Origin: Enterococcus phage Phi_Eg_SY1
Strand: one strand, 5' to 3'
Length of the DNA stretch: 42,319 bases
Sequence record: OQ623132.1
Position numbers and translations under genes: made by a program. The notes under the pieces are model-generated. The model had not been told where the DNA came from, made no database searches, and saw nothing but the letters and a program-made list of their open reading frames with translations. How positions within the stretch are numbered: the stretch's first letter is position 1; each line of letters begins with the position of its first letter. Shown one piece after another: positions 21,855-41,753 of this stretch.

Positions 21855-21863
21855 ATTATACCA
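21855..21863 (-). promoter_or_regulatory. extended -10 promoter TGGTATAAT (minus strand)
   Basis: + strand ATTATACCA; sits immediately after the terminator. Confidence 0.4.
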
Positions 21864-21864
21864 T

Positions 21865-21890
21865 AAAAAAGCCACTCTTTGGCGAGTGGC
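21865..21890 (-). terminator. intrinsic terminator GCCACTC-GCCAAA-GAGTGGC + TTTTTT (minus strand) just after Dit stop
   Basis: read directly. Confidence 0.55.
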
Positions 21891-21899
21891 TAGATGTTA

Positions 21900-24800
21900 T
21901 TATAGATAGGTTCGTTGGTTCTTCACAGTTACTTCTAAAGTGTCTGTAGCCCAATCTGAGTTAATGAACTGTAAGAAATGCTCTCCTACATCAAGGGCAA
22001 ATCCTTCCCACTGGTTACCTATGGTTGCAAGGTCCTCACGTTCTACACCATTTACAAAGAATGTTTTATCATGTGTGTTGATGACAATCTTGTCCCCTGC
22101 TTTAAATGGGTTTTTACTTTCTTTGGATTTACCTGTTCCCATCCATGTGAATCTTGAATCAGTCACCTGCATTGTTGCAACAATAGAGTAGGTTTCTTTC
22201 TTCTTGTGTTCTACACGTTTAGTGTTTTGTAGGTAATATCCACTGACCCAACCTGACGCAGGTATTTTCTTACCTGTGTTCTTAGTTACATAGTACCATT
22301 GATTGTTGTTGATAATCTTTTGACCTGTTTGACGCTTAGTTGTTTCAAAACTTACGCCTTTAGGTAATAGACCGTAGGACTTGTAACTAGTCTTAGAACC
22401 AGCGCGAATGTGTAGGACTTCCTTAGATTTCATTGTCCATGTTACTTTGTCTACAACTTCCCTTGTAGCTAGTGAGTCTTTATATTTAAGTAGCCATCTG
22501 GATGTTTTAACAACAGAAGTTTTATTTGCCACAGGTGCATTGTAGGTAAATGGGTTTTTTGTAACTGGTTTAATTCCGTTGTTTGATTGGATATGTTCAA
22601 AGTTCCAACTGAACTTCTTACCAGTTTGGTCACGGGTCATTGTACAGCGGAACCAAGATGATTTGTACTTCGTTACATCTGTCTTGATTGATTTTAGTAA
22701 CTTGTTACCGTACCAGTATTCAACAATCACTTCGTTGCCTTTTGCGTCAGAGTCACGGATGGTCATAGACATTAAGATGTCATTGGCGTCTGTTAAAACC
22801 ACTAATTCATAACGTCCGTTCTTTTCTGACGTAGTACCAAAGTTTATGCGTTCCTCAAACTTGAAGGCTCCTGTTCGTAAACCTGTGGATGGTGCTTTAA
22901 CAGGTGCTGTGAGGGAAGGTCCTGACCATGTGTTTGGTGCGAATGTTGTTGCCCATTTAGGTTTAAACGCCTCAGAAGGAGTGTAGTCCCATGAACCCAT
23001 ATATAGGTTAGGTCTAGCAGGGTCATTGGCTGTGTTTGGATACTGCGACACATGTCCACTGTTAATGGTGAAGCCAGATGGTAGTTTAGTACCTCTGTAA
23101 CTTTCATTTAAACCAATTTCATCTTTAATTGGCTCTGTGGCGTCTTTGTTTTCTTCGTTACCAAATTGTAGAACCTTACCTTGTTCATTGATAACTCCAA
23201 TCATACCATTTTCTTCTGCGTTAGTAATCTCAAAGATAGGGTAGCTTTTCCACGTTCCATAATTAGTTACGGGGACTGTTTTGAGAAACTCTTTGACTGA
23301 CGCTACATATGCGCCATTGGTCCCACGCGTTAACATAGGTCTGTTAATGACTACGTAGGCATTGCCATATACATTTAGGCTCAATCTGAGAACTTTAGTA
23401 GCTTCATTTTGAATACTATATGTTTGTGTGGTACGCGTCATTGGAATTGTAGACGCGTCTAACCCTGTACCTATAGGGTACCATGTGTATAGTTTACCAC
23501 GTTCTGTAATGTGTGGGATAAATGGTGTCGCATGGTCGTTTTGTTCTAGTTTTAGATTTGTCACGTATATTGTACCTACAAATGACCCATCTATCATTAC
23601 CATTACTTCTACCCTACTCATGGCTTTGTTTGCTGTGGTTCCTATCCCTGTGTAGCGAACAAACTTACCTACAGCGTCAGATGTTATTGCTGCACCTATG
23701 TCTGTGTATGTTCCGTCAAAATACACTAAGCGTACAATTAACTGCGTAGCTCCTAGTTGTCCAGTAAAACCGCTTTTTACTTGTATACTACCTGAAACAG
23801 TATAGGTTGTATTTCTATATGCTGTATAAGGTATAGAAGAATATCCCGCGCGCCCACTTGATGTGGTAGTTTTAGTTAGTTCCGTGTAACCTGGTTTAGG
23901 CGTTGCTGTAATACCTCCGTTTACTCCCCAATACTGCGTACTATTGTCTTGTGAACCGTTTAGGAGAATGTTTGGAGCAGTGTCCTCAGGTACAGTATCT
24001 GTTGTGCTATACCCTACATATTTAGGTGTGGTGTTGTCAATAGTTGGGGTATTTCCATCTGTCCAGACTGTACCCTCATTGTTTGTTGCCTCAATCTTAG
24101 CGCGCCATATAGTAAGATCTGGTAGCTCCCCTGCGGTCGCTGAATAAAATACGAACTGCATTGAGACGTTCCATGTTACATAAGAAGCTGGAAACACTAA
24201 TAATCTACTCTCACCTGCGTAGACGTCAATGCGCTTACCCATATTATTTAACACGTATATTCCTGTGGTACCATTATTTTTAACATAGATACTATGAACG
24301 TAGTTCTGACCGTAGGTGTAATTTACCCCTGACACTGTTAATGTTCCAAAAATTCCGTTTGTGGCTGGATTTTTTGTTACTTTAATGTTTACAGCATTTG
24401 TTGCACCCCACTCTGGTACACTTACACCTGTTGTGCGTGTCATTGTACTACCTGAGTATGGTGTGAGCGTTGGTTCCTCAGATTGTCCACTGGGGATGGC
24501 GTTAGGGTTAGGGTACTCATCAAATGAAAAACGGTCTGAACCTGTTTCATTGAAAGCGTATGCTGTACGTACTTGACCGTTGGCTGGTACTGGAACTGAC
24601 GTAGTATGTGTGTGCAATACTTTGCCATTTATCTTATCAATTTCGTCAACTACAATCTCAAACGTACTTAAACCATCTTCGTCAGTATCATTCTTTTTAA
24701 CAATACCGTAGTCTGTAGCGAATGTAATGTTTTGTCCTTGGGTTAAGTCATCCATTTCATAGAACACATCATCACTCACAAAGTCATGAACAACTGTTTC

Positions 24801-25376: not shown

Positions 25377-25407
25377 CTTATGACCTCCTCTTATTTGCTC
25401 TCATTCT

Positions 25408-25416
25408 ATTATAACA
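25408..25416 (-). promoter_or_regulatory. extended -10 promoter TGTTATAAT (minus strand) for Dit
   Basis: + strand ATTATAACA; about 20 nt upstream of Dit RBS. Confidence 0.45.
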
Positions 25417-25447
25417 TGGTTTTAATGAAAAAGGTTGATAATACTTG

Positions 25448-25476
25448 TTGACAGTAACACTAATAGATGGTATATT
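25448..25476 (+). promoter_or_regulatory. consensus sigma70 promoter TTGACA-N17-TATATT driving the reverse-oriented moron
   Basis: perfect -35, 17-nt spacer, read directly. Confidence 0.65.
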
Positions 25477-25509
25477 ATATGTGTAATCAATATTAGGGAG
25501 GAAGTACAC

Positions 25510-25917
25510 ATGCGGAAAGAGTTGAAAAAACATATTAATCAAATGAATGCGCAAGAAATTATGACAGTTGTAAATATGGTGGAATCGTCTAAAAAGAACA
25601 TTGACCCTGTTACTCTTGATGTTAGTGGTCACTGTCTTGATATGATGAAAAAGAGATTAGGTGTAGTTAATAAAGATGTGTTACTTGATGTTCTAGCACA
25701 TTATGAGGTGGTTGAGTATAAACAGGTTTTTGATGGACATTATATGATAGATAAACGCGTTGTTTTACGTAGTAGTAAAGCTTATGATAATTATAACTAC
25801 TGTGTCGTTTTTAGTGTTATGAGAAACAGCATTATAACGTATTGGAAAAACAAAACATATAACACACATAAGAATGTTGATTTAACAAAGTACACAACCA
25901 ATATGAAGGTATATTAA
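25510..25917 (+). CDS. moron gene: 136-aa protein, DUF4258-like (toxin-like) fold suspected
   Basis: RBS AGGGAGGAAGTACAC-ATG; opposite strand to the surrounding late genes; motif SGHCLDMMKKRLGV...VVL...IITYW resembles DUF4258 from memory. Confidence 0.55.
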   Translation: MRKELKKHINQMNAQEIMTVVNMVESSKKNIDPVTLDVSGHCLDMMKKRLGVVNKDVLLDVLAHYEVVEYKQVFDGHYMIDKRVVLRSSKAYDNYNYCVVFSVMRNSIITYWKNKTYNTHKNVDLTKYTTNMKVY

Positions 25918-25946
25918 AAGACCCCTAGATAGGGGTCTTTCTTGTT
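25916..25946. terminator. bidirectional terminator AAAAGACCCCTA-GAT-TAGGGGTCTTTCTTGTT
   Basis: 8-bp GC-rich stem; T-tract on + strand, TTTT on minus strand. Confidence 0.65.
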
Positions 25947-26952
25947 ATTCAATATCTTGCTCTAATACCCATGAATTAATAGTACCTAGCAAGTATGCTT
26001 TCTTAGAACGTGACTGATTCACATTCTTAACATCTTTAATTTTGTATGTTGAACCTTTTACAAAACTAGCAATGTTCTCCCCTGTTTGGTATTTAACTGC
26101 GTGTTTTGCTACCTTCACTCTGTCTCCTACCTCGTGGGTTTTATTAGATGAGCTGATTAAGTCTAGGTCCTGTGCTAGGAACCATGAGTTAACACCGTCT
26201 AGCAAGAATGCGTACTTACTCTTAGATTGATTTACAACTTTACGCTCTTTTACTTTGTATTTAGAACCTTTTACAAACTTTGGAATCGTTTGACCTGTTT
26301 GATACTTCACTGCGTGACTACGAACAATCACCGTTGACCCATCTTCAAAAATGCGCGTATCTGAGATAGTTGGTTTAGATGGTTGTGGTTTAGAGCCACT
26401 GTTACTATCATTACCAAATCCGTTTTTGATGTCTTTAGCAAATTGTTCTTTACTAATTCCCCACTTACGCAAGTATGGGTAAGGGTCAACGTGGTCAGAG
26501 CCATTGTTTGGTTGGTGTGCTGTTGCGTACGCGTGAGAGATAACACCTGTGTTACCTTTGTCTAATGTCTTAGGTAGTTTAGCTTCATCACATAGCAGAC
26601 GAATCAACTCAACATATAGTTTATAATCTTTCATAAACTCAGCTTTTGTTTTATGTGACTCAATCAACTCAATTTGAGCATATCCCCATGCGTTCCACCC
26701 ACCTCCTACGTCATAAGCTCCGCGGTTAGTTGGTGCTGTCTGAATAACGCGCCCATTTCCTACTACGTGAGAAAAGAACCCACTTTCTACTGGTCTACGC
26801 ATGTGGTAGTCTGCTTCATTTTGCGCTGTAGATGATGGATTACCTGTGCTGTGAACGTGAATTTGACCATAGGGACGAACGCCTACTTGCGGTAAACCTT
26901 GTCTAATTTGTTTTTCAATTTTCATTCTATATCTCCTCTCTTTATCATACAA
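25945..26952 (-). CDS. N-acetylmuramoyl-L-alanine amidase (amidase_2/PGRP domain) with two C-terminal cell-wall-binding repeats; presumed endolysin
   Basis: amidase_2-like N-terminal domain; tandem ~55-aa repeats HAVKYQTG...FVKGS.YK.K..K.VNQS.SK.A.LL x2. Confidence 0.7.
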
Positions 26953-26988
26953 TTATAACATAGAAAAGGAGGCTTGCGCCTCCTTAGC

Positions 26989-29900
26989 TTATACTAGACG
27001 CCCTAGACGTCTACCTGCTGTCATAGTTGCTTTCTCTTTACCTTTCGTAAGAACAGGCTCTATTTCAGCAGTCACTTTCCGTTTGTCTAGGTAAACATCT
27101 GTATCCTTTTCTAACAACGCTTGTAGTAAGATGTTAGTTTGTTGCTGTTGTATGATTAGTTGTGCAATTAGTTCGTCATTTGAACCACCTGCGGCTACTG
27201 TTGTTGGTGTTACTCCTAATCGTTTTTGAGCCTCAGCAAGTAACATCATTGCTCTACTACGTTTTGCACTATCTAACGGAATCACCATTTCTGGCTTATT
27301 TCCTTCTCCTACCATTGCTAGGTGTTCTCTTGTGATGAGTCCACCGTTCGCGTATCCTACACCGCGCCACCCTTTTGTTAAGGACCCGTAGCGTGATAAC
27401 GTGTATCTGATAGAGGCTAAGATATTAGACAATGGGTCGTAGATATTTTTATTGTATGGCTTCATTGCATACTGTCTAAAGGTTGGGTCTATCACTTGCA
27501 TTAGCCCTTTTGATGGAATACCGTTCTTGGCGTTGATATCCCACAGGTTGATTGCTTTAGGGTTTCCGTTTGACTCTGTACGCATTTGGTTCATCAAGGC
27601 GTTAAGGTTGGCTGTTGTCCATTGTCCAGTCATTTGTAGCGCACGTTTAGCTGTTGCACGCCAACGGTCTACACCTGAGCCAGTGGTTGTTGTGTCAATA
27701 GCTCCGCCTTTAGATTGAGGGTCTCTCACACCGTTAATGTGCAAGTGGTCCATGTGACCTCCAGAAGCCCAGTTAGCCCATGCATCATGAATACCAGTTC
27801 CAGATGTTCCAGCGCGGTCACGTACTTTGTTAAGAGCAATAACGTAACCTACTTGATTTTTGAAGTTGTCAAATGCGTAGTTACCTGCTTCACGGTACTT
27901 ACTTGAACCGTTCATGCTTGCAGGGAAAGCAACGTCAATAGCGTTTCTTGAACCGTGGCTATATGGGTCGCCTGGTCTATATCCGCTTGTTACGCGCATA
28001 CCAGGGAATTTTGATACAACTTTACGCGCTACGTCTGCTAGGTACTTGTAAACCCCTGCTGTTCCTACGCCTGTATCTAGGTTTCCACTTGAGAACAAAT
28101 CAGCTACTTTACTTGTCATAGCTGTTGTTGCTTTTTTAACTAGTCCTGTAGCGATATCTAGAGGATACTTGATTAAACCTGAGGTATCTACTACGCTAGA
28201 GAATACTTTTTCAACCAGTTTGCTTGGGTTGCTTGCATAGTCCCAAATATCACCAACAAAACTACCTACTTTGTCAAATGCACTTTTAGCCATATTCTTG
28301 GCACCAGTCCAGAGGTTTTTAACCCCTCCTGTTACCTTGTCAAAGAATCCAGTTCCTTTTTTGTATGCGAACTTAGGACGTTTATGACCTAGGACTTGGG
28401 CAGTTTCTTCTGCGGTTAATACTTGCGTGCCTCTACGTCCGTACATTGTAACGTTCTTACCTTTGGGGATGATAGCTTGTCCACTAGGGTCAATTACCAT
28501 TTCTGCACCGCGTCCGTCGTTGACCATCATTGGTCCGCCCGGATGCCCACCGTTAGGGGTACCTTGAGCGTACTTAGGTGCTTCCCATGTTTTCATTTTG
28601 TCCATGCCTAGTTTTTCAAGAATCCAGTTAGCACCGCCAATGATTCCGTTTACTGGTTTCTCAATTACCTTCATGGCTCCGTTAAACATGTTTTTGAACG
28701 CGTCTTTTAGGAAGTGTGCGCCTCCTTTGATTCCGTCAGCTAGTTTTTTAGGTAGTCCTTTTATCCACCCTACTACAGTATCCATACCACCTTTGAATGT
28801 GTTTTTCACACCTGTCCAGAGGTCTTTAATTACTTGGGTAAAGTTGTTTTTAATACCTCTTACACCGTTGGCAATATTAGACGCCCAACCTTTTATCATA
28901 TTCCATGCCCCAGTTGTTCCGGATGAGAATAGGTTTTTAATGCTATCCCATAGACCTTTGATAATGTTGGTGAAGTTTGTTCCTAGTCCTTTTACTGCTG
29001 TTACAATGTTTTTAACAAAGATAATGTTAATGTAGTTCCATACTGCTTTTATTCCGCCTAGGAAAATACGTTTAATAGCGTCCCATAGACCTTTAAAATC
29101 ACCTGTAAGAACCATTGAGAACACATCTATTGTACCTGTGATGAAGTCAACCATTCCATCAAAGAAGCCAATTACTGAGTCAATAAACGACCCTAGTAGG
29201 ACAATTGCAATCTTGAATACAGGTTGTAAAAGTTTTACGAGATTTAGAATTGCCTTACCAATGCGGTCCCCGTTATTATCCCACCAACTGGAAATCTTAT
29301 CAAAGATTTTACCGAAGGCGTCAAATAGTTTTTGCAGGATTGGCATAACCAATGGTATAATATTCTTAATCACGTAGTCCATCACTTGTACAATTATTTT
29401 ACGTACTCCTGTGATGAGTTTGACAATTGTTTCTAATGCTTTAGCAATGAAAGGTATTACCATTGGTAGAATAGTCTTTGTGAAGTAATTCAATCCGTCA
29501 GCTAGTTTTTGAATAAATCCCGCTGGTCCTTCGTTGTCCCCTAATGTAAATGATGAAACTAGATATTCTTTAAAACTAGTGAATGTCTCTTTAATACTTT
29601 GAATAGAATCATCAATTAAGAAAACAGTGTCTAAGTCTAAACCTAGCTCGTTAAGATTGACGATACCGTCACCTGTCCACATTGCTTTAATACTATCAAA
29701 CCATGTGAATAGACCGCCTACTGATTTTTTAAGATTTACTACTGACTCATCAATTGCCATTACTGTATCAAGGTCTAACCCTAGTTTTTTAGGGTCAATA
29801 ATTCCGTCACCTTTCCACATAATACCAAACGCCTCAATCCAGTTTTTGGCATTGTCAAGCGTGGACTTGATTCCTCCAAATACGGCGTTAAATGTATCAC

Positions 29901-31524
29901 CTACAAAAGTTAACTTACTAGCTACCGCAGGCATTGCTGTAGCTACAGCCTTCATAAAGCCTTCTACGCGTTTACCTGAGTTACTAATCATTTCCCCAAT
30001 TGAGGGTAAGTTCATGGCTTGTAGTGAGGCGTCAAAACCTTTGATGAGTTCTGCTGTACCTCTGACCATTGCTGTCTTAGCGTTTGCTATAGATGTACTA
30101 ATACCTTTAGTTGAATCTTTGGCGATTTGTCCTAACGCTTTTAGACCTCCGCCACCTTCTTTATCTAGCTTTATCAACGCGTTTTGGAACTGTTCAACAC
30201 TGATAGAACCGTCTGATAATCCCTCTTTTAGTTCCCCTGTTGTCTTACCCATGGTTTTAGCCATAGCGTTAAGGGTAGGTCCTAAACCTGAGTTAATCAT
30301 TGAGTTCCATGTTGAAGCGTCAACTTTACCATTAGAAAAAGCTTGTGATAATTGAACGATTGCATTTGTAGCCATGTTGGCGTCTCCGCCAAATCCTAAG
30401 ATACCATCATTCAATGCCTTGTAGACGTCTACTGATTTATCTAAGTCTCCTGTTGAAGCAGCTAGCAACTGCACATTTGATACAGAGTCATTCAACGCAG
30501 TAGGTAACCCTTCAATGGCTTTACTGATTCCGTCCATTGCTTTGGATGTAGCCTTAGCAGAAAACCCCATGTTCTCAAACGCACGCGTACTGTTTGCCAG
30601 TGTGTCAATCCTACTAATAGCACTATCTAGGTTAGAGGAGATGGCACCAATTGCTTTATTACCTATGGTTGCCATTGCTCCAAAACCTACAGACCCAACT
30701 AGTGTTTTAATACCACTCAGCGCGCCTTTAGTCGCTCCTGAGATTTTGGATAAACCTTTACTAGCTTTGTCACCTGCTGAGTCAGTCTTTTTTAACTGCT
30801 CATTCATGTTTTCAGTTGCAGTACTTGTTTCTTTTAATTGTTTCTCTGTTCCGTCAAGTTGCTTGGCTGTTAATTGTTGCTGACGTTTAAAGTCACCTAA
30901 ACGGTCTTTCGCTGTTTGAACCTCACGGGAGTTTTCACCAAACTCTGAACTCAATCCCTCAATTGCTTTTTCTTGTGCCTGAATTGCTTTTGTGGTAAGT
31001 TCATCTTGACGTTTTAAACCTTCTTTTTGAGCCTTATATGCGCCTACTTTGTCTCCTGCTGATTTTAACGCAGAGACTTCTGCCTTCATATTACGCTCGT
31101 TGTCTTTCATTGCTTTGGAATACTCATCAACACCACTTGAGGCAATTACATAGGCTTGTTTTGTCTTGTTAAGCTCTGTAGATAAAGCGTTGTATTTTGA
31201 AGTTGAGTTATTAATTTGAGTATTAAGAGTTTGTACCTGCTTTGATTCTTCACCGTACTTTTTAATTGCCTCAGTTCTGCGATTATTCAAAACGTCAATT
31301 CGTTTTTCTTGAATTTTCACAACACTAGTTAGGTCTGAGTATTTTTGTTCTAAGGCGTTGACAGAGTTGCCTGCTCCATCAAACGCCTTCATGTTAGCCT
31401 TCATGGCACTTTCTGCTTGCTTGAATTGTTTCGTTAATTTGTCTAATGTATTACCAAGTTCAGCAGTACCATCTATACCCAAACCAAACTTCATATTTCC
31501 AATTGGTTTCCCGTTTTGAACCAT
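26989..31524 (-). CDS. tape measure protein with C-terminal lytic transglycosylase (SLT) and M23 peptidase domains
   Basis: 1511 aa, coiled-coil N-terminus; TESNGNP...GLMQV SLT motif; HMDHLH M23 motif. Confidence 0.8.
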   Translation of the reverse strand: MVQNGKPIGNMKFGLGIDGTAELGNTLDKLTKQFKQAESAMKANMKAFDGAGNSVNALEQKYSDLTSVVKIQEKRIDVLNNRRTEAIKKYGEESKQVQTLNTQINNSTSKYNALSTELNKTKQAYVIASSGVDEYSKAMKDNERNMKAEVSALKSAGDKVGAYKAQKEGLKRQDELTTKAIQAQEKAIEGLSSEFGENSREVQTAKDRLGDFKRQQQLTAKQLDGTEKQLKETSTATENMNEQLKKTDSAGDKASKGLSKISGATKGALSGIKTLVGSVGFGAMATIGNKAIGAISSNLDSAISRIDTLANSTRAFENMGFSAKATSKAMDGISKAIEGLPTALNDSVSNVQLLAASTGDLDKSVDVYKALNDGILGFGGDANMATNAIVQLSQAFSNGKVDASTWNSMINSGLGPTLNAMAKTMGKTTGELKEGLSDGSISVEQFQNALIKLDKEGGGGLKALGQIAKDSTKGISTSIANAKTAMVRGTAELIKGFDASLQAMNLPSIGEMISNSGKRVEGFMKAVATAMPAVASKLTFVGDTFNAVFGGIKSTLDNAKNWIEAFGIMWKGDGIIDPKKLGLDLDTVMAIDESVVNLKKSVGGLFTWFDSIKAMWTGDGIVNLNELGLDLDTVFLIDDSIQSIKETFTSFKEYLVSSFTLGDNEGPAGFIQKLADGLNYFTKTILPMVIPFIAKALETIVKLITGVRKIIVQVMDYVIKNIIPLVMPILQKLFDAFGKIFDKISSWWDNNGDRIGKAILNLVKLLQPVFKIAIVLLGSFIDSVIGFFDGMVDFITGTIDVFSMVLTGDFKGLWDAIKRIFLGGIKAVWNYINIIFVKNIVTAVKGLGTNFTNIIKGLWDSIKNLFSSGTTGAWNMIKGWASNIANGVRGIKNNFTQVIKDLWTGVKNTFKGGMDTVVGWIKGLPKKLADGIKGGAHFLKDAFKNMFNGAMKVIEKPVNGIIGGANWILEKLGMDKMKTWEAPKYAQGTPNGGHPGGPMMVNDGRGAEMVIDPSGQAIIPKGKNVTMYGRRGTQVLTAEETAQVLGHKRPKFAYKKGTGFFDKVTGGVKNLWTGAKNMAKSAFDKVGSFVGDIWDYASNPSKLVEKVFSSVVDTSGLIKYPLDIATGLVKKATTAMTSKVADLFSSGNLDTGVGTAGVYKYLADVARKVVSKFPGMRVTSGYRPGDPYSHGSRNAIDVAFPASMNGSSKYREAGNYAFDNFKNQVGYVIALNKVRDRAGTSGTGIHDAWANWASGGHMDHLHINGVRDPQSKGGAIDTTTTGSGVDRWRATAKRALQMTGQWTTANLNALMNQMRTESNGNPKAINLWDINAKNGIPSKGLMQVIDPTFRQYAMKPYNKNIYDPLSNILASIRYTLSRYGSLTKGWRGVGYANGGLITREHLAMVGEGNKPEMVIPLDSAKRSRAMMLLAEAQKRLGVTPTTVAAGGSNDELIAQLIIQQQQTNILLQALLEKDTDVYLDKRKVTAEIEPVLTKGKEKATMTAGRRLGRLV

Positions 31525-32112: not shown

Positions 32113-32122
32113 TAGAGCGCAC

Positions 32123-32148
32123 AAAAAAAGAGGGGTATTATCCCCTCT
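32123..32148 (-). terminator. intrinsic terminator AGAGGGG-ATAATA-CCCCTCT + TTTTTTT (minus strand) after the major tail gene
   Basis: read directly. Confidence 0.6.
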
Positions 32149-32151
32149 TTA

Positions 32152-32721
32152 CTATACGGCTGGTGTTGTTTTATTTGCTACGAAGTCTTGGAACTTAGAT
32201 AGGGTTAATGTTTCCGTACCTACACCAGAGGCATATACGAAGCCACGGGAGTCAGAAATTGCAGAACCTTCAATAGTGTCCGTATTAGGTTCCGTACCTC
32301 CACCCTCAGACGTGTTCAAGGCAACATCTGGGTGAGCAAAGCGAACTTTAGTCAATCCCATGTATACTTCGTTACCATCCGCGTCATCTGCTACAAAAGT
32401 AACAGACACGTAAGGTGCTTGAGTGTCTTGCCCTACTGTGATAATACCATTTTCGTCTGCTTTCAACCCTAGTACCGCGCTATACGCTCCGCCTGCTTGT
32501 AAATCAAACACGTTCAATGATACGCTTGTTTCTCCTGTACCTTTAGCAGAAACATAGAACGGGATATTTGACGCGTAAACAGTTGTAGCCTCCGCACCTA
32601 GTCCACTGATAGTAGCCTCAATAGCGCCGCCTTTTGTTTTGTCTAGGCTGTAGGTTGTGTAGCCTGTACCTTCTGAATTAGGTACATGAATATGAGCTGA
32701 TTTAAAACCGATTTTTGCCAT
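32152..32721 (-). CDS. major tail protein
   Basis: 189 aa, Ig-like/beta-rich; position before chaperone; followed by terminator. Confidence 0.65.
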   Translation of the reverse strand: MAKIGFKSAHIHVPNSEGTGYTTYSLDKTKGGAIEATISGLGAEATTVYASNIPFYVSAKGTGETSVSLNVFDLQAGGAYSAVLGLKADENGIITVGQDTQAPYVSVTFVADDADGNEVYMGLTKVRFAHPDVALNTSEGGGTEPNTDTIEGSAISDSRGFVYASGVGTETLTLSKFQDFVANKTTPAV

Positions 32722-32783
32722 AGTTTTTATTCATTCCTTTCGTTCTTTCTTATATTATTTTACCATATTCCTACGTTGTGTAG

Positions 32784-34167: not shown

Positions 34168-34186
34168 TCTATCACTCCTATCTAAT

Positions 34187-34220
34187 AAAAAAGAGGTAAG
34201 AGGTCACCCCCTTACCCCTC
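34187..34220 (-). terminator. terminator after the major capsid gene (GAGG(GG)TAAG...CTTACCTC + TTTTTT on minus strand)
   Basis: stem with 2-nt bulge, read directly. Confidence 0.45.
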
Positions 34221-34234
34221 AATGGGTTTCGTTA

Positions 34235-35461
34235 TTATGCGCCTGCTCCACCGCTAGGGAATTCAGAGGCATTACCTACGATTACAGTAGATACATTGTC
34301 CTTAATTGCTCCTAGTTTAAACATCAAGCCAGCGTTTGTGTCTGTAGCTACTACGTCAAAACGGATTGCACCTGCTAACATTTCACCGTAGACGTTATGG
34401 TCTTGCCAACGTACAGTCATTTCAGTACGTTTGAACAATGTAATTGCTTGTTCTAAGTCACCAATGAACAGTAATTTGTCATCTGTTTCATTTTTAAAGA
34501 TAGCGTCAGGAAGTACTACTACTTCTTTACCAAACAATGTTTTACCACTTGCCATTGTCACGTTTGGTTGGATGATATAGCGTCCGTCTGCGTCTTTCAA
34601 TGTGTCTAATTGACCAAACGCGCTTTGTGATACATAAACGCGTTGTGCGTATGCAGGGTCAATTGTAACGTCAGAAGCCACTTTAAGTTGGTCTAATGAT
34701 GTTAATTCAGTTGGTGCGAATTTAGCTAACAACTCAGCCATAATTGCTTTGTTAGTTGTGTTCAATGCAATACGAGTGATATGTTTAGCAATCAACGCAA
34801 CCAACTCAGGGTCAGAGTCTTGAATTGCTTCGTTAGACATTGGGATGTATCCGCGGTAAGTTTCCACTTTCCAAGCTACGTCCTTGAATGTTGGTTCTGC
34901 CAATTTAGGGTTAGCTACTAACTCAGCTACTGTGTTCATTACAGCATTAGTTGTTTCCAAAATTGGGTATGAACCTGAGCCAGTTGTTACTGTCACTACG
35001 TTAACATAGTTTTGTAGGTCAACAATTGTTTCTGGTAAAGTGATTGGTTTTGTAACGCGGTCTACTGGTACAATCGCTTCAATTCCCTCTAATTTAACAT
35101 CACGTAGTTCTGGTGCTTTTACTGCTCCGTGTGAGCGGACATACTGACCGAACGCACGTAACTCAGCGTCCTCAATATTTTCTGTAGGTTTGATTTTTTT
35201 AACGTTTTCCATGTCTCGTTGCTCTCCTTTTTCGTCATTTTCTAATTCGTCAAGTGATTCCTCTAGTTCTTTAGCACGTTCATCTTCCTTAGGTTCGTCC
35301 TTAGGTTCGTCCTTAGGTTCGTCCTTAGGTTCGTCCTTAGGTTCGTCCTTAGGTTCTTTGTTCAACTCACGTACTTCATTGATTAGTTTTTCAGCTTCAT
35401 CTAACTTACCTTGTGAGAGTAATTCACGTGCCTCAATAAGTTTATTCTCCATTGTTAACAC
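34235..35461 (-). CDS. HK97-family major capsid protein with N-terminal coiled-coil delta/scaffold domain
   Basis: 408 aa after prohead protease; (EPKD)5 repeat in delta domain. Confidence 0.8.
   Translation of the reverse strand: MLTMENKLIEARELLSQGKLDEAEKLINEVRELNKEPKDEPKDEPKDEPKDEPKDEPKEDERAKELEESLDELENDEKGEQRDMENVKKIKPTENIEDAELRAFGQYVRSHGAVKAPELRDVKLEGIEAIVPVDRVTKPITLPETIVDLQNYVNVVTVTTGSGSYPILETTNAVMNTVAELVANPKLAEPTFKDVAWKVETYRGYIPMSNEAIQDSDPELVALIAKHITRIALNTTNKAIMAELLAKFAPTELTSLDQLKVASDVTIDPAYAQRVYVSQSAFGQLDTLKDADGRYIIQPNVTMASGKTLFGKEVVVLPDAIFKNETDDKLLFIGDLEQAITLFKRTEMTVRWQDHNVYGEMLAGAIRFDVVATDTNAGLMFKLGAIKDNVSTVIVGNASEFPSGGAGA
35287..35358. repeat. 12-bp tandem repeat CCTTAGGTTCGT x ~6 encoding (EPKD)n within the capsid delta domain
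   Basis: read directly. Confidence 0.85.
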
Positions 35462-35522
35462 TCCTTGTTGTCTTTCTTAAATTATTATATCATGTAACCT
35501 TATGTCGTAGTTGACCTAGCTA

Positions 35523-36080
35523 TCACAATAATTCAAGAATGTCAAGTTCTAACTCTAGTTTTCTTTTTTGCTTATAGAAATCATCTTTAGACCGTTGTGC
35601 TACTTTTACCACTGTGTCATCATATGCAGGGATGGATACTAGTGAAATTTCAATCAATTTACCAATCTTATCAATTGTACGGTGGTAAGTATCTGAATCA
35701 CTATCGTATTGCCATGTATCCGCGTCAACAGTAAATCCGAACGAACACTGTGACAAGTCTCCTCGTTTTGTTAGCTCATACACGTCTCTACCTACCTGAG
35801 TATTAGGTAATTCTAATCTGAATCGCAAGCCTTCATTATCTGTGTTTAGTTGTAGCGTGCCTGTTTTTGTTCGTCCTAACAGGTTCCCTGAGCTGTGGTC
35901 AAAAAACGCGCGGACATCTGAAAAGTCTACACCAATGAAAGCAGTGTCAGAAACCTTTTCGTATACATTGTCATATAGATTAGTTTCTGAGTTGAACATT
36001 GTAGCGTAACCCTCCACAATCATCTTGTCAGTATCTTCCATTGCGCGAATTTCAGCGCTTCTAATTTCTTCATTCTTCAT
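35523..36080 (-). CDS. HK97-family prohead protease
   Basis: RBS AAAGGAG 9 nt before ATG at 36080; position between portal and capsid. Confidence 0.65.
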   Translation of the reverse strand: MKNEEIRSAEIRAMEDTDKMIVEGYATMFNSETNLYDNVYEKVSDTAFIGVDFSDVRAFFDHSSGNLLGRTKTGTLQLNTDNEGLRFRLELPNTQVGRDVYELTKRGDLSQCSFGFTVDADTWQYDSDSDTYHRTIDKIGKLIEISLVSIPAYDDTVVKVAQRSKDDFYKQKRKLELELDILELL

Positions 36081-37242: not shown

Positions 37243-37424
37243 TATTCACTCTCTCCTTTACTTGCAATCTCATCTAATTCATTTGATAATTTAAAACTTG
37301 TTGCCAAACATACTGCTCCTAAGATGATAAAACCAACGGTAATATCAATTAAAAATCCTCCAATTGCGATAAAAACACACGCTAATATATACATAATCAT
37401 AGGTAAATAGACAATCTTTTCCAT
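37242..37424 (-). CDS. small membrane protein (60 aa) between terminase and portal
   Basis: RBS AGGAGG 7 nt before ATG; ATGA-type overlap with portal start; hydrophobic. Confidence 0.45.
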   Translation of the reverse strand: MEKIVYLPMIMYILACVFIAIGGFLIDITVGFIILGAVCLATSFKLSNELDEIASKGESE

Positions 37425-37457
37425 TTGAATCCTCCTAACATCATACTTCTTTATCAA

Positions 37458-37466
37458 TTATAACAC
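37458..37466 (-). promoter_or_regulatory. extended -10 promoter TGTTATAAT (minus strand)
   Basis: + strand ATTATAACA, 2 nt after the terminator U-tract. Confidence 0.45.
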
Positions 37467-37467
37467 G

Positions 37468-37493
37468 AAAAAGACAACCTAAGTTAGGTTGTC
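37468..37493 (-). terminator. intrinsic terminator GACAACCTAA-C-TTAGGTTGTC + TTTTT (minus strand) after terL
   Basis: near-perfect 21-bp palindrome, read directly. Confidence 0.6.
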
Positions 37494-37502
37494 TCAATGG
37501 AT

Positions 37503-39224
37503 TTATAAACCAAAACCAAAGTTACCGTTAGCATACTGTTCTGAGTAGTTGGTCATTTGGAACTCATAGAAGTACGCTTCACTGTATGCGTTAATTAACG
37601 CGTCTAATGGGTCAATTTTATTACGGTTTACCTGCTTATCAATCATAATCAAGTCGTTAGACTCTTTTGTGAAGGCGTTGTACATAGCACGTGTCAATAG
37701 TGGGTTATTGAAGTGTTTCACTTTACCTGAACGGATATCAGCTTGAAGTTGTTTCGTAGGTGGGTTAAGTCTCATGTAAGACTGACGAACATCAAAAAGA
37801 ACTTCCTCATATGAATCAGATAGACGAGTTGTAATAAGCTGAGACTGAGCAGGGTCATAACAAATACCTTTAACATCCAGTTTATTTGTTTCAATAAAGT
37901 CTAGTATCCAGTTTAGCATGTCCTGCCAATCCGCCTGACCGTCCTCACGGGAACTAATCTCGCAGTAACCTTGTTTTGCGTATGCGCGATAGGGTGTTTT
38001 ATCGTTTTCCTCTTTTTTCAATATTCCCCCGCCTGTTGTTGCTACCCATGAATGAGAATCAACAACAAATACTTCTTCCTCTGGAATAGGTACAACCCAT
38101 GTAACAGAGGTTAAGTCGCCTACGCGTGCCAAGTCAATACCAATAAATACTTCGCGTCCTGTGATGTCATACTCTTGTTCTGTATAAGCATTTTCCCATT
38201 CCTCAGTAGATACATAGGAGGTTGCTTGGTCAGCTACCCAAAAATTCAATTCTTTTGTTAGAAAGTTTGTTAGGTTACCTTTTGCTTCTCCTTCTTTTCT
38301 TTTTGCACGCTTATGCTCTAACATATGTTGGCGAACTTCTGGTTTCTCAAACAATGGGTTAGACTTAAACCAGTTTTCTTCATCATCCGCTTCGTCAAAG
38401 GAATCCATCTCGTACCATAGTGCTAGGTAGTGGTCAGCCTCTACCTCACCTGTTAGGACTTTCATAGTCATTGGATACTCTTCTAAATGATAGTGTCCGT
38501 TTAGGTTTTGAGATGTTGTACTAATCATTAAATTTAGTGGTTGCATTTGTTGAGATTGTGATGACTCAATAACCTCAACAATATCTGTTGACTTATTCTC
38601 TGCAATCTCATCAAAGATTGAACAACAAACATCTAGTCCATCTAGCACAGATGAGTCTGAGGCAAGTGCTTTACAGACTGAATCGTCTTTCGTTTCAATA
38701 TCATACTTGTTAACTTTCGTGAATTCACGAACCTTCTTAGACTGCTTGCGAACTGCCTGTAATTGCGTTTTAATCATACGGAAACAGATAGAAGCCTGCT
38801 CGCGCGTGTTTGCTGTAGAATACACTTGACGTGACGCCATTGGCGAACGCTCATAGAGAAGCTCATATAAGGCTATACCTGCAATTAATAGTGATTTACC
38901 ATTTTTACGACTCATGGAGATAACTACTTTAGTGAATCGTCTGTATCCTGATTCTTTCTTGACCCATGAGAAAATCATACCAATAATAAATTTCTGGAAA
39001 TCTGCCAACCCTACGCGTTTGCCTGTTTTAGGGTCCGGAAGGTTGTCAATAAATGCAATTGGTTTTTCTGCTAATTCAGGTCTATACTCGTATGGGTAAT
39101 CAGGAGACTTAGACTTTTCTAAGTCCCTTTCATGACGCTCAATTGCTAATTGAATACGTCTACCTACTTTGTATTGTCCGGATTTTACTTTATCAATGTA
39201 AATTTTTACATAGTCTTTATTCAA
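37503..39224 (-). CDS. terL: terminase large subunit
   Basis: 573 aa; Terminase_1-like ATPase and nuclease layout. Confidence 0.85.
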   Translation of the reverse strand: MNKDYVKIYIDKVKSGQYKVGRRIQLAIERHERDLEKSKSPDYPYEYRPELAEKPIAFIDNLPDPKTGKRVGLADFQKFIIGMIFSWVKKESGYRRFTKVVISMSRKNGKSLLIAGIALYELLYERSPMASRQVYSTANTREQASICFRMIKTQLQAVRKQSKKVREFTKVNKYDIETKDDSVCKALASDSSVLDGLDVCCSIFDEIAENKSTDIVEVIESSQSQQMQPLNLMISTTSQNLNGHYHLEEYPMTMKVLTGEVEADHYLALWYEMDSFDEADDEENWFKSNPLFEKPEVRQHMLEHKRAKRKEGEAKGNLTNFLTKELNFWVADQATSYVSTEEWENAYTEQEYDITGREVFIGIDLARVGDLTSVTWVVPIPEEEVFVVDSHSWVATTGGGILKKEENDKTPYRAYAKQGYCEISSREDGQADWQDMLNWILDFIETNKLDVKGICYDPAQSQLITTRLSDSYEEVLFDVRQSYMRLNPPTKQLQADIRSGKVKHFNNPLLTRAMYNAFTKESNDLIMIDKQVNRNKIDPLDALINAYSEAYFYEFQMTNYSEQYANGNFGFGL

Positions 39225-39243
39225 TTAATATCACTCCTAACCA

Positions 39244-39702
39244 TTACAACATTGCTCCAAATGGGTCCTCTGGTTCCCGTTCCTTCACTTCTGGAATAAC
39301 CAACTTCATACGTGAATCAATAGATAGACCAAGTGAGCTTGCTAAGGACTTCAATTGTTTAGAGGTTTCGTTCATAACCTTAAACGCGCCTGACGGTTTA
39401 CCATTTTCGTCTAGGAAACCATATTCAGATACTTCCTGCGTTGCCTGAGAATAAATAGCATATGTATTGCAGTAAATAACCAATAAACCAGCGTCTAGTT
39501 TTGAAATTGGTAGTTGTCTCATCTGTGGTACTAGGTCCTCATAAATAAGCCACCCTTCTTTAGTGATTCCGTGGGGTACATCCTCTAGAGAAATTGGTTC
39601 GTAATTATATAATAACTCTTCCTCTTTTTCTCGCTCTATTCTCTGTTCTTTTGTTAAGTGACTATTTTCTTGCGCACTTACTAATTTTCTAGGTCTTGGC
39701 AT
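39244..39702 (-). CDS. terS: terminase small subunit (P27 family)
   Basis: 152 aa directly upstream of terL; RBS AAGGAGGAG. Confidence 0.7.
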   Translation of the reverse strand: MPRPRKLVSAQENSHLTKEQRIEREKEEELLYNYEPISLEDVPHGITKEGWLIYEDLVPQMRQLPISKLDAGLLVIYCNTYAIYSQATQEVSEYGFLDENGKPSGAFKVMNETSKQLKSLASSLGLSIDSRMKLVIPEVKEREPEDPFGAML

Positions 39703-39735
39703 CTTTTTACTCCTCCTTATTGTCTAGTTGTATTT

Positions 39736-39744
39736 AGTATAGCA
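39736..39744 (-). promoter_or_regulatory. extended -10-like element TGCTATACT (minus strand) upstream of terS
   Basis: + strand AGTATAGCA. Confidence 0.3.
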
Positions 39745-39781
39745 TAAAATTACTCGTTTTAGGAATCGTAACTAATTTAAT

Positions 39782-39846
39782 AAAGGTATTTTGTACTTTT
39801 ATTAATAAAAGTATTTTTTACCTTTATTGTTTAGGTATATTTTACC
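39782..39846. repeat. three AT-rich direct repeats (A(A/G)GTAT(A)TTTTACC) at 24-25 bp period
   Basis: read directly; upstream of terS. Confidence 0.5.
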
Positions 39847-39974
39847 TAAATTAGATTTCATATTAGGATTTTTACACGAAGAGAAGAGAGCTTCGATTAT
39901 TTGACACTCAGAGGGTACGGGGGGTTAATTTTAGCGCGCCTAAAAAGTTTTTAATATAATTATACCCCCTCGCC

Positions 39975-40014
39975 TTAGAACGTCTCTAAGAGCCTCTCAG
40001 AGCGTTTTAGAGCG
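39975..40014. repeat. four tandem 10-11 bp repeats T(T/C)AGA(A/G)CG (candidate TerS-binding sites in the cos region)
   Basis: TTAGAACG / CTAAGAGC / TCAGAGCG / TTAGAGCG, read directly. Confidence 0.5.
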
Positions 40015-40020
40015 TGTCAT

Positions 40021-40054
40021 AAAAAAGACCCCTACAGATTATTTTCTGTAAGGG
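40021..40054 (-). terminator. hairpin + TTTTTT on the minus strand overlapping the 3' end of the HNH gene
   Basis: CCCTTACAG-N-CTGTAGGGG with one bulge, then U6. Confidence 0.4.
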
Positions 40055-40428
40055 TGTGAAGGTGCGTATTTGTGACTGTGTTTGTTATGGCAAGAATAGC
40101 AAATACTTTCTAAATTATTCATTTCTAATCGTTTTTCCCATCCACCATTAGGGTCACGTAGCTCTATGATGTGGTGCACCATGTCTGCCTTAGTGGTAAT
40201 CCCTTTGCGCATGCACACTTCACAATATGGAGTCTCTAATAACTTTACTTTACGCGTTGCTCTCCATTCTGGTGTGTGATAGAACTTGCTATACTTCCCA
40301 TTGTCACTGTTATATCTGACTCTCTTGTTGTATTCACTCTTACCTTTCTTCATATGCTTGTCACAGTACATTGTACCAAGTGGAACCTTATTCCTACAGT
40401 AGGTTACCTCACACTTCTTTAATGGCAT
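40039..40428 (-). CDS. terminase-associated HNH endonuclease
   Basis: CxxC...HHI..L....NL..IC..CHN.H zinc-finger HNH motif; RBS GGAGGAG 8 nt before ATG 40428; adjacent to cos/terS. Confidence 0.75.
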   Translation of the reverse strand: MPLKKCEVTYCRNKVPLGTMYCDKHMKKGKSEYNKRVRYNSDNGKYSKFYHTPEWRATRKVKLLETPYCEVCMRKGITTKADMVHHIIELRDPNGGWEKRLEMNNLESICYSCHNKHSHKYAPSHPYRK

Positions 40429-40430
40429 TA

Positions 40431-41723
40431 TTAAATCTCCTCCATCCATTCGTCTATTAGTGTCTGTGTTACTGATTCACCATTGGTTACGTTGTTATAT
40501 ACTTTACGTTCTATATCATTGTCTGCAATCAGATAGTAATACAAAGGATTGTCTGTTGATGTGTGTCTTGTGATTCGTCCTTTCATCTGCTCAAAGGTAA
40601 TGCTACTGAGTGGCATTTCATAGAATACCATGGTGTGGGACTGTGCTAGGATATTGACCCCTGTACTCCCTGCCTTGAATTGTACAAGGATGATAGCATT
40701 ATCATATTGCTCCCATGCTTCTAAGTCCTTTACACTACCGTTGTATGATGATACAGGTCTACCACTCTTACTGATAACATCATAGAGTCTATTATATGAT
40801 TCCGTGTAGTTGTATCCAATTACTACACGTTCTCCTTTACATTCTTCTAGTATGTCCTTTAGCGTGTCTATTTTGCTGTTCTTAGCTACTTTATCAACAT
40901 AGGGTACATAACCATTAGAAGCAACTCTAAGCGCGTTAAACACCTTGCTAGGGTTGTCTAATTCAATTATATCCCCTGAGTCTGTCTGGTAGGTCCTATG
41001 TTTAGCTAACGCCTTTACCATTGATGGTGATTTAACATATTTAACAATATCTGAGGGGACTAACTTATTATCACGCTTAATACTCACACTATGTGTAGAG
41101 ACAATCTCTTTTAGTTCATGTAGGTTCTTGTATCCTGTGATTACATTGAAACTACGCCCTCCCATATATTGAAGCTCTTCTATGCAGTAACGTTCTCTGA
41201 AAGCTTTCCATGTTCCTTTGTATAAACCAGCTATCGTTAACTGAGAGAACCACTGTTCCATTGCTCCATTTGAGATGGGTGTTCCGCTCATTAAATAAGT
41301 CTGACCTGCTTTCTTACTTGCTTTCATCCAGAATTTCGTTACGTTGGCTGTCCTATTTGCCAGTAAGTGAGATTCGTCAAAGACAATCATGGTTTCTTTA
41401 TCAATAAATTTCAATAATTGTGGGGTTCTCCATGATGATTGGAAACTGATTGCGACGTGTTGCGTTCCTGTAGCCTCTAGGAGGCTCTCTCTGCGCTTTG
41501 GTGAACCTTCTATGGTAATTATACCTAAACCTTGTTGAGACCCCTCAGAAGCCCAATCAGACACCTTAGACGCTAGGCATACAATTACCAGCTTCTTAAG
41601 ATCACTGTGTTTAAATCCTTCTAGAGCCATTAGCGTCTTTCCTGCTCCCACTTGAGATGTGTTGATGTTGTGGGTTCTTACCTTCTCAATAACCGTCTGT
41701 TGTTCTGGTGTTGGTATTAGCAT
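40431..41723 (-). CDS. SNF2/DEXH-family DNA helicase
   Basis: Walker A GAGKT, DESH box, LMSGTP, C-terminal helicase motif VI QMKGRITR. Confidence 0.7.
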   Translation of the reverse strand: MLIPTPEQQTVIEKVRTHNINTSQVGAGKTLMALEGFKHSDLKKLVIVCLASKVSDWASEGSQQGLGIITIEGSPKRRESLLEATGTQHVAISFQSSWRTPQLLKFIDKETMIVFDESHLLANRTANVTKFWMKASKKAGQTYLMSGTPISNGAMEQWFSQLTIAGLYKGTWKAFRERYCIEELQYMGGRSFNVITGYKNLHELKEIVSTHSVSIKRDNKLVPSDIVKYVKSPSMVKALAKHRTYQTDSGDIIELDNPSKVFNALRVASNGYVPYVDKVAKNSKIDTLKDILEECKGERVVIGYNYTESYNRLYDVISKSGRPVSSYNGSVKDLEAWEQYDNAIILVQFKAGSTGVNILAQSHTMVFYEMPLSSITFEQMKGRITRHTSTDNPLYYYLIADNDIERKVYNNVTNGESVTQTLIDEWMEEI

Positions 41724-41744
41724 TTTATCTCCTCCTTAACACTG

Positions 41745-41753
41745 ATTATAGCA
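41745..41753 (-). promoter_or_regulatory. extended -10 promoter TGCTATAAT (minus strand), start of the late transcription unit
   Basis: + strand ATTATAGCA about 15 nt upstream of RBS AAGGAGGAG. Confidence 0.45.

Follow-up and report, generated by a model that had tools for sequence, protein, structure and literature searches.

Short transcription units predicted on the late strand of Enterococcus phage Phi_Eg_SY1, in a layout common to Efquatrovirus-type phages

The late (minus) strand of Enterococcus phage Phi_Eg_SY1 (record OQ623132.1) carries recurrent intrinsic terminators and extended -10 promoters, and its genes are most probably expressed not as one operon but as about ten short transcription units that start from extended -10 promoters of the host sigma-A type. 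The window, by which is meant the whole analysed stretch of 42,319 nucleotides (nt), is a 42-kb siphovirus genome as judged from its listing of open reading frames (ORFs) and from PHROG scans, and ten such promoters and nine terminators are predicted on its late strand. A preliminary description had pointed to seven late-strand elements of this kind and had called the arrangement unusually regular. All seven are present, within 1-3 nt of the positions given there; the list was incomplete, since it omitted P4, P5, P10, the T5/P7 module and T0 (numbered below). The layout is not an oddity but is normal for the published Efquatrovirus-type group, because it is shared with phage phiSHEF4, because compact modules of the same kind stand on the early strand and because the -35-less promoter class is the commonest one in Enterococcus.

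Promoters, terminators and units of the late strand

The minus strand holds all genes outside the early region, from ~41750 down to 17362. Their order is helicase, HNH, a 336-nt gap presumed to be the cos region, terS, terL, a small ORF, portal, protease, capsid, four connector genes (Ad1, Hc1, neck and tail terminator), major tail, chaperone, tape measure, endolysin, a reverse-oriented ORF, a Dit-like protein of 1158 amino acids (aa), Tal, RBP, a small ORF, XhlA and holin. The predicted elements along it are as follows, with folding energies (dG) in kcal/mol.

P1, 41745-41753, minus strand: TGCTATAAT, 22 nt upstream of the helicase ATG (41723); predicted unit, helicase and HNH
P2, 39736-39744, minus strand: TGCTATACT, one hexamer mismatch, 34 nt upstream of the terS ATG; predicted unit, terS and terL
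P3, 37457-37465, minus strand: TGTTATAAT, 5 nt past T2; predicted unit, small membrane ORF, portal and protease
P4, 35484-35492, minus strand: TGATATAAT, between protease and capsid, no preceding terminator, 29 nt upstream of the capsid ATG
P5, 32757-32765, minus strand: TGGTAAAAT, between tail terminator and major tail, 36 nt upstream of the major tail protein ATG
P6, 32104-32112, minus strand: TGATATAAT, 14 nt past T4; predicted unit, tail chaperone and tape measure
P7, 26952-26960, minus strand: TGTTATAAT, ~1-5 nt past T5; predicted unit, endolysin alone (ATG 26925)
P8, 25408-25416, minus strand: TGTTATAAT, 32 nt upstream of the ATG of the Dit-like gene (25376)
P9, 21855-21863, minus strand: TGGTATAAT, 6 nt past T7; predicted unit, Tal, RBP, small ORF and XhlA
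P10, 17666-17674, minus strand: TGATATAAT, between XhlA and holin, 21 nt upstream of the real holin ATG (~17645)
T0, 41880-41902, minus strand: hairpin of 9 pairs and U-run, dG -17.0, 126 nt upstream of P1
T1, 40028-40055, minus strand: 11 pairs, dG -16.6, tail CUUUUUU, at the end of the HNH gene and before the cos region
T2, 37471-37495, minus strand: after terL, dG -14.0
T3, 34191-34220, minus strand: after the capsid gene, 13 pairs, dG -20.6, the strongest, no promoter behind it
T4, 32127-32150, minus strand: after the major tail protein gene, dG -14.2
T5, 26966-26985, minus strand: after the tape measure gene, dG -15.7
T6, 25917-25946, both strands: bidirectional, serving the lysin (minus) and the reverse-oriented ORF (plus), dG -17.0
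T7, 21870-21891, minus strand: after the Dit-like gene, dG -14.5
T8, 17338-17363, both strands: bidirectional, where late and early strands converge, dG -14.0

Exact copies of TGNTATAAT are far more numerous than chance would have them. The window has 12 where 3.1 are expected, none of 100 shuffles reaches 12, and all except one fall in non-coding DNA (11 sites, 0.53 expected from base composition), which on the refined gene map makes up 8.4% of the window (binomial P=1.7e-11). The recurrence of TGnTATAAT noted in the preliminary description is therefore well founded; one 9-mer reported there to occur twice, TGTTATAAT, occurs three times on the minus strand (P3, P7 and P8). At every one of the ten late sites a TG stands at -15/-14, a single base separating it from the -10 hexamer, with the Gram-positive form TRTG in seven and RTG in all ten, and the hexamer itself is TATAAT in eight, TATACT in one and TAAAAT in one. 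The lack of a recognisable -35 element, also described earlier, is borne out: at spacings of 16-18 bp the best match to TTGACA is 1-3 of six positions, and there is no true -35 at these promoters because the mean match (2.0/6) lies below that of random background (2.55).

All ten sites lie on the sense strand, 21-44 nt from -10 box to start codon, with a Shine-Dalgarno sequence before the start. To see these distances, mechanically assigned ORF starts were corrected for several genes (small ORF, lysin, capsid and holin): listed starts that overlap TATAATTG (37457 and 26952) are artefacts, the true ones lying downstream after Shine-Dalgarno sequences (near 37420 for the small membrane ORF behind P3), and so is the listed holin ATG at 17667, the real start again following a Shine-Dalgarno sequence downstream. 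Past most of the -10 boxes come 4-5 A/T-rich bases and then a purine run (AAGAAAG). At the level of sequence, then, the late promoters have the features of the extended -10 sigma-A class, and initiation at them is predicted.

Three further candidates were rejected. A TTGATA-18-TATAAT pair inside Hc1 (33580-33551) is found in no relative and is attributed to chance; the only perfect TTGACA...TAnnnT that the late sense strand offers (24040) is internal to the Dit-like gene and its -10 is poor; and TGATAGAAT after T3 overlaps the Shine-Dalgarno sequence and ATG of Ad1 and is not conserved.

The nine late hairpins fold at -14.0 to -20.6 kcal/mol (RNAfold), far more stably than the -6 kcal/mol that the preliminary description had set as its limit, and each stem is followed on the sense strand by 4-7 U. 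All are intergenic, T1 alone touching its upstream gene, where it overlaps the final bases of HNH. Terminator-like sites exceed their numbers in shuffled sequence in both of two scans (25 vs 11.1 +/- 3.2 and 11 vs 4.9 +/- 2.3). Such hairpins look, on sequence grounds, like Rho-independent terminators, and termination at them is predicted. The promoter-less terminator after the capsid gene and the final bidirectional terminator, both listed earlier, correspond to T3 and to T8 (17363-17338). Four compact modules, T2/P3, T4/P6, T5/P7 and T7/P9, place a promoter directly after a terminator, the TG coming 1-14 nt past the end of the hairpin. The module between terL and portal had been described with its promoter 1 nt away from its actual place at 37457-65, and the pair proposed between lysin and Dit (25916-46/25408-16) is not an immediate module, as the two are separated by a gene on the plus strand (25510-25917) that has a canonical -35/-10 promoter. 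T0 sits in a divergent control region in which no upstream gene is apparently in need of termination, and in the equivalent region the relatives have a TGTACA...TGTACA hairpin.

From these elements we infer a series of units: helicase and HNH from P1 to T1; past cos, terS and terL from P2 to T2; the small ORF, portal and protease from P3; the capsid from P4 to T3; the connector genes, promoter-less; the major tail from P5 to T4; chaperone and tape measure from P6 to T5; the lysin from P7 to T6; Dit from P8 to T7; Tal, RBP, the small ORF and XhlA from P9; and the holin from P10 to T8. The late strand is thus cut into units, as the preliminary description had held, although its further proposal that each morphogenetic module is a unit of its own does not map one to one: the connectors lack a promoter, portal, protease and a small ORF fall into one unit, and the holin has its own promoter. 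Because no promoter stands anywhere from Ad1 to the tail terminator, expression of the connector genes must come by read-through of T3. A promoter and a terminator of their own are found for the capsid (P4-T3), the major tail (P5-T4), the lysin (P7-T6) and the reverse ORF (25448 promoter to T6). The capsid and major tail genes are bracketed in this way in all six phages compared, and wherever the gap in front of these two promoters exists it holds no terminator. The earlier suggestion that units are independently boosted is accordingly plausible for these two genes.

Conservation in relatives and in phiSHEF4

The nearest named phages are Enterococcus members of Efquatrovirus, with 53% terL identity, and the lysin resembles lysins of Streptococcus and Enterococcus phages, which together place the host among the Lactobacillales. 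The window (GC content 37.7%) is best explained as a virulent siphovirus that is distantly related to that genus and infects a low-GC member of the Lactobacillales. Searched at the DNA level, the phage collection held no close relative, its sole match being part of the tape-measure gene at 77% identity, and IMG/VR returned only relatives with ~52% terL identity. Closer relatives were reached by protein searches and Logan/ENA contigs (loci L011-L014 and L015-L019), the protein searches yielding contigs with terL identities of 88, 83, 80 and 66%. Conservation was then judged junction by junction, each hairpin being folded singly, in L011, L012, L013/L015, L014 and L018 (terL 66-88% identical) and in phiSHEF4 (53%).

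The comparison with related phages that had been proposed at the outset shows that corresponding junctions carry elements of the same type. In all relatives the terL junction has a hairpin, a T-run and TGnTATA(A/C)T, and the junction after the major tail gene has a hairpin and an extended -10. The hairpin and extended -10 after the tape measure (T5/P7) and the bidirectional terminator after the lysin (T6) are present in both loci that reach so far, L015 and L018, which also keep P8; the hairpin and extended -10 after Dit (T7/P9) are present in L015, the sole locus extending to that point, where the P10 junction reads TGGTACAAT. Upstream, extended -10-like sites occupy the place of P1 in L011-L014, and TGnTATACT that of P2 in all relatives. 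At P4, 6/6 phages have an extended -10-type site, with 5-6 of six hexamer matches except in L013/L015 (TGCTAAACT, 4/6), and 6/6 likewise have the promoter-less terminator after the capsid gene. P5 has an equivalent in every relative that has the gap, L014 being without it. The 21-44 nt between -10 box and start codon holds in every relative in the junction-by-junction scan.

The stems themselves are another matter. Those after terL are unrelated in L012, L013/L015 and L014 (e.g. GAGACAACCTAA..., AGGGAGGTTATAACCTCCCT, ACCACCCCAAACGGGTGGT and GACGGAGTT...AACTCCGTC), and RNAalifold on MAFFT alignments of the junctions between terL and the small ORF and between the major tail and chaperone genes returned no consensus structure. 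Classical covariation statistics are unusable because the stems cannot be aligned, being unrelated in more distant relatives. Conservation is positional and structural, not one of sequence homology, and the arrangement itself is under selection, because the same gene junctions carry it in relatives with sequence-unrelated stems. Against L011 and L012, the two closest relatives compared, nucleotide identity is as high between genes (60-88%) as in the genes on either side (59-83%). Directly observed are the sequence elements themselves, together with their statistics, conservation and placement with respect to genes.

In phiSHEF4 (Efquatrovirus, NC_042022, the same as L020) the gene order is that of the window, and so is the punctuation: an extended -10 TGCTATAAT before terS beside cos, a hairpin and TGCTATAAT before terL, a terminator-less TGATATACT before the capsid gene and a promoter-less terminator after it, a terminator-less TGATATAAT before the major tail gene and a terminator followed by TGCTATAAT behind it, a compact hairpin, TTTTG and TGTTATAAT after the tape measure, and a terminator followed by TGATATACT before the lysis genes. 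TGNTATAMT occurs at 19 sites there vs 6.7 expected, and perfect TTGACA-N16-18-TAnnnT promoters number 15 on the early sense strand vs 0-1 on the late one. This agreement is found despite protein identities of only 35-60%. Unlike the window, phiSHEF4 has a 596-nt non-coding insert between terS and terL (34800-35395), in which two extra TGnTATAAT boxes (34807 and 34912) and GC-rich, structured-looking segments are seen; it could be the remnant of an intron or of some other insert. A genome paper on vB_EfaS-271, a phage of this group compared there with phiSHEF5 and AL3, gives just counts of predicted promoters and terminators (PMC7503890).

A motif beyond the -10 box is a separate observation. 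P4 and P5 have AATaTAAGAAAGA in common downstream, and the window's capsid and major tail promoters (35455-35492 and 32721-32765), like their counterparts in L011 and in L012, share AAT(A/T)T(A/T)TAAGAAAG past the box; those of L013/L015 share ACTTAGTAAAGA, and in phiSHEF4 the capsid, major tail and chaperone promoters share TAGTAAGAAAA, to which AATaTAAGAAAG corresponds in the window. The motif changes in concert within each phage, and could be a start-site or leader element or the binding site of a factor.

A free-standing HNH/NUMOD4 homing-type gene lies exactly in the junction between the major tail and chaperone genes of L013 (17193-17516), L015 (9061-9384) and L017 (9069-9386), and in L013 and L015 it has a hairpin and TGnTATACT on either side, so that a promoter and a terminator of its own flank it. 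Gene by gene, identity to the closest relatives forms a mosaic, the major tail reaching 93% between neighbours at 67% and 72%; the tape measure (26989-31524) is ~50% identical to these relatives although terL is 88% and Dit 82%, and it is nearer to other contigs (63%). Such a pattern suggests exchange of blocks bounded by the terminator/promoter gaps. Additional HNH genes are seen near terS and terL in relatives (L013, L015/L016 and L018).

Reading of the units and alternatives

Host RNA polymerase with sigma-A is the simplest reader of the late units, because PHROG and Pfam scans of the window proteins recognised no sigma factor, anti-sigma factor, RinA/Alt-type activator, integrase or repressor. 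Each unit would start at (T)RTG-n-TATAAT without a -35, transcription probably beginning ~7 nt past the -10 box in the purine run (AAGAAAG) and leaving a 5' leader of ~15-37 nt, mostly 20-30 nt, that carries the Shine-Dalgarno sequence. Most units would finish at a Rho-independent terminator at which polymerase stops at least partly. In the short gaps the elements would be set head to tail, the T-run of the terminator filling the upstream or spacer region beside the TG of the next promoter. The T-run belongs to the terminator and not to the promoter, because P1, P2, P4, P5, P8 and P10 have neither an adjoining terminator (T0 is 126 nt upstream of P1) nor a T-run.

Several consequences may follow from such a design. 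The capsid and major tail proteins are the most abundant in the virion, and a private promoter and private terminator for each would amount to dosage control, with the low-copy connector genes receiving only what reads through the strong T3, and with lysin and holin driven by promoters of their own. Terminators would also shield each promoter from polymerase traffic arriving from upstream and would let mobile genes insert without polar effects, as may have happened with HNH in L013/L015 and with the lysin and reverse ORF. That the promoters fire and the hairpins terminate in vivo, where transcripts start, and the logic of dosage are what we infer from the observed arrangement.

There are considerations that weigh against this account. 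A match to consensus is not proof of promoter activity, and a literature search found no transcript mapping for this phage or for any Efquatrovirus. Consensus-like sigma-A promoters before late genes leave the early/late timing unexplained. The argument from stoichiometry depends on an assumed terminator efficiency and assumed read-through, and the tight spacing from terminator to promoter could be simple genome compaction.

Known systems offer partial parallels. Among mapped promoters of E. faecalis a G-n-TATAAT -10 box is present in 83.5% and a -35 box in 20.6% (PMC4408782), so that the late promoters look like ordinary good host promoters and need no special factor, -35-less promoters being the majority class there. 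RNA sequencing of the Staphylococcus Kayvirus vB_SauM-515A1, a ~140-kb myovirus, found sigma-70 consensus at early promoters and TGTTATATTA without a -35 at late ones, the latter preceding morphogenesis units bounded by intrinsic terminators and in one case following directly on a terminator; its authors infer a phage-specific sigma factor (PMC7698491). The late promoters of the window are likewise TG-extended, -35-less and placed before morphogenesis units. Their box, however, is the plain sigma-A TGnTATAAT followed by A/T-rich bases, which departs from TGTTATATTA at hexamer positions 5-6, and no sigma-like gene was recognised in the window. In SPP1, a lytic siphovirus of Bacillus, late clusters are delimited by intergenic stem-loop terminators and early promoters are canonical sigma-A, no consensus late promoter was found, and late transcription requires an unidentified early factor (PMC6316719). 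The window resembles it as a lytic siphovirus of Firmicutes with stem-loop-delimited late clusters, and differs in showing a clear and repeated late promoter consensus. The architecture is thus well defined, conserved and sensible, akin to the units of SPP1 and Kayvirus and common to Efquatrovirus.

Timing might be supplied by an early phage protein that displaces or blocks sigma region 4, so that the -35-dependent promoters of the host and of the early genes are turned off and the extended -10 late promoters stay active; this would add to the explanation by host-read units, not replace it. The early promoters and that at 25448 do match TTGACA at 5-6 of six positions, vs 1-3 at all ten late promoters, the same split is seen in phiSHEF4, and Kayvirus is a precedent in a Firmicute phage (PMC7698491). 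The Thermus phage P23-45 transcribes its middle and late genes from -35-less extended -10 promoters, its early promoters and those of the host being of the -10/-35 class, and P23-45 gp39, like T4 AsiA, leaves extended -10 promoters active (PMC3950348). The switch protein is known in those systems and none was identified in the window; ~18 early ORFs are without a family assignment, though PHROG and Pfam scans of the early ORFs found no homologue of AsiA, gp39 or a sigma or anti-sigma domain. A takeover of this kind is rated doubtful because no factor is recognisable and because three -35-less extended -10 promoters stand on the early strand, one of them before the DNA polymerase gene; -35-less promoters are in any case the ordinary majority in E. 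faecalis. Less likely again is that terminator and promoter form one selected composite, at which polymerase stays on the DNA past the U-tract and is recaptured by the abutting extended -10. Sliding after termination and reinitiation at nearby promoters have been shown in vitro for bacterial RNA polymerase (PMC6978380, PMC6978322, PMC10372574), and in every relative that carries these junctions the TG begins only -2 to 6 nt past the end of the hairpin after terL, after the tape measure (before the lysin, or before Dit in phiSHEF4) and between Dit and Tal despite unrelated stems. Yet compaction predicts short spacing equally, the gaps being only 45-90 nt; the spacing between the major tail and chaperone genes ranges over 0-47 nt, and six promoters are without an adjoining terminator or T-run. 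The two ideas might also be combined, a terminate-and-restart device together with an early -35-disabling protein then giving an early-to-late switch and fixed ratios of structural genes with no dedicated late activator, which we regard as just as improbable as the composite by itself.

A different proposal is that the modules are mainly boundaries or landing pads for horizontal exchange, self-contained cassettes (lysin, reverse ORF, HNH genes and perhaps the tape-measure block) being swapped and the punctuation a by-product. The HNH gene set exactly within a module in L013/L015, the lysin and reverse ORF lying between tape measure and Dit in this clade and not in phiSHEF4, and the mosaic identities given above all speak for some exchange, although the identity differences may stem from differing constraint instead. 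Morons, as described by Hendrix and colleagues, are autonomous promoter-gene-terminator inserts, accessory genes that some relatives carry at a given site and others lack there. That presence/absence pattern is seen for the HNH gene (only in L013, L015 and L017) and for the lysin with the reverse ORF; the capsid and major tail units, however, are conserved core genes and not cargo, and modules flank core genes at the same places in all relatives even where no exchange is visible. As the main explanation exchange is distinctly unlikely. Least probable of all, in our estimation, is a single late transcript, possibly anti-terminated, on which the hairpins would be 3' stabilisers or processing barriers and the TGnTATAAT boxes weak, irrelevant or sites of sigma-dependent pausing. 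T3 at least must be read through for the promoter-less connectors to be expressed, the late clusters of SPP1 are delimited by stem-loops while its late promoters are ill defined (PMC6316719), and sigma-dependent pausing at extended -10 elements of consensus sequence has been reported to occur (PMC4604602). The geometry nevertheless argues for promoters and against pause sites, because the (near-)perfect, position-conserved boxes are always 21-44 nt ahead of a start codon and are essentially never inside genes; U-tracts follow all the hairpins, and PHROG and Pfam scans of the window ORFs recognised no antiterminator-like protein.

The value of these results is practical more than conceptual. 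They provide a complete, if predicted, transcription map (ten promoters, nine terminators and corrected starts) for a relative of Efquatrovirus phages that are under development against Enterococcus, and the map should be applicable across the whole clade. Bracketed capsid and major tail genes, together with promoter-less connectors behind a strong terminator, would make a clean natural example of virion protein ratios set at the level of transcription. The compact parts, ~40 nt for terminator and promoter, could serve as insulating cassettes in the engineering of phages with Gram-positive hosts, and the sharp split between early (-35/-10) and late (extended -10 only) promoters makes a sigma region 4 takeover factor worth seeking among the unassigned early ORFs.

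The reverse unit, the early strand and minor observations

Within the late region, the endolysin gene (25945-26925, minus strand) stands between tape measure and Dit as a unit with its own promoter and terminator, next to a plus-strand unit that uses T6 jointly with it. The pair of lysin and reverse ORF is kept in L015, L016, L018 and L019, and the lysin also in L017, where the locus ends; the lysin of phiSHEF4 comes after the holin. The reverse ORF had no Pfam match. Positions 1-17337 of the plus strand hold replication and other early genes, among them HNH endonuclease genes, a primase-polymerase, DNA polymerase, a glutaredoxin-like protein and a DUF5906-type primase/helicase, the DUF5906 domain having been detected on the L011-L014 homologues. 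The plus-strand unit and three compact modules of the early region are as follows.

25448-25917, plus strand: reverse unit, TTGACA-17-TATATT (25448-25476) and an ORF of 135 aa (25510-25917, phrog_1905)
6070-6112, plus strand: compact module, hairpin 6070-6102, then directly TGTTATAGT (6104-6112); dG -20.2, z -6.75
12066-12104, plus strand: compact module, hairpin, T-run and TATATT (12099-12104); dG -12.7
14663-14696, plus strand: compact module, hairpin 14663-14684, UUUUC and TGCTATACT (14688-14696), before the DNA polymerase gene; dG -13.8

Early-strand hairpins fold at -12.7 to -20.3 kcal/mol with z of -2.7 to -6.75, and in the module at 12066-12104 a perfect TTGACA -35 (12076-12081) spans the hairpin loop and the start of the 3' arm. 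TTGACA matches of 5-6 positions at 17-18 bp spacing are found on the early strand at 562, 2507, 2679, 12076, 12299 and 12475, as well as before the reverse ORF at 25448; the three -35-less extended -10 promoters of the early strand are at 6575, 11330 and 14688, the last being that of the DNA polymerase gene. A search of the window for Rfam families and tRNA gave none.

Two reading frames show irregularities. The apparent start of Tal is an ATA codon (21820-21818, minus strand), 8 nt past the Shine-Dalgarno sequence GGGAGG; the resulting N-terminus, IEFYFTDREF..., aligns from residue 1 to MEFYFCNREM... of the L015 homologue, and starting at the first ATG (21745) would cost 25 conserved residues. 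Either translation begins at a non-canonical codon here or a base is in error. On the plus strand, behind a good Shine-Dalgarno sequence and the extended -10 at 6575, positions 6631-6648 read ATG AAA AAA AAA ATT TGA, and a one-base shift in the run of 10 A would let reading continue into the ORF listed as 6737-7015, which points to either a homopolymer error or slippage.

In the presumed cos region (39890-40010, minus strand) there are repeats of the CTCT(A/G)AG type, a CCCCCCG block kept in all relatives and reading CCCCCCC in phiSHEF4, and a conserved GGGGTATAAT (~39966-39957) with no gene close by. Within the early region, the minus strand carries TGGTATAAT at 8781-8773 and, ~40 nt on, a very stable hairpin terminator (8734-8693). 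The putative RNA had no match in Rfam; the fold of 8770-8690 reaches -23.1 kcal/mol (z -6.75), and together these elements would yield an RNA of ~75 nt from 8690-8781, antisense to a plus-strand Shine-Dalgarno sequence and an ORF of 12 codons.

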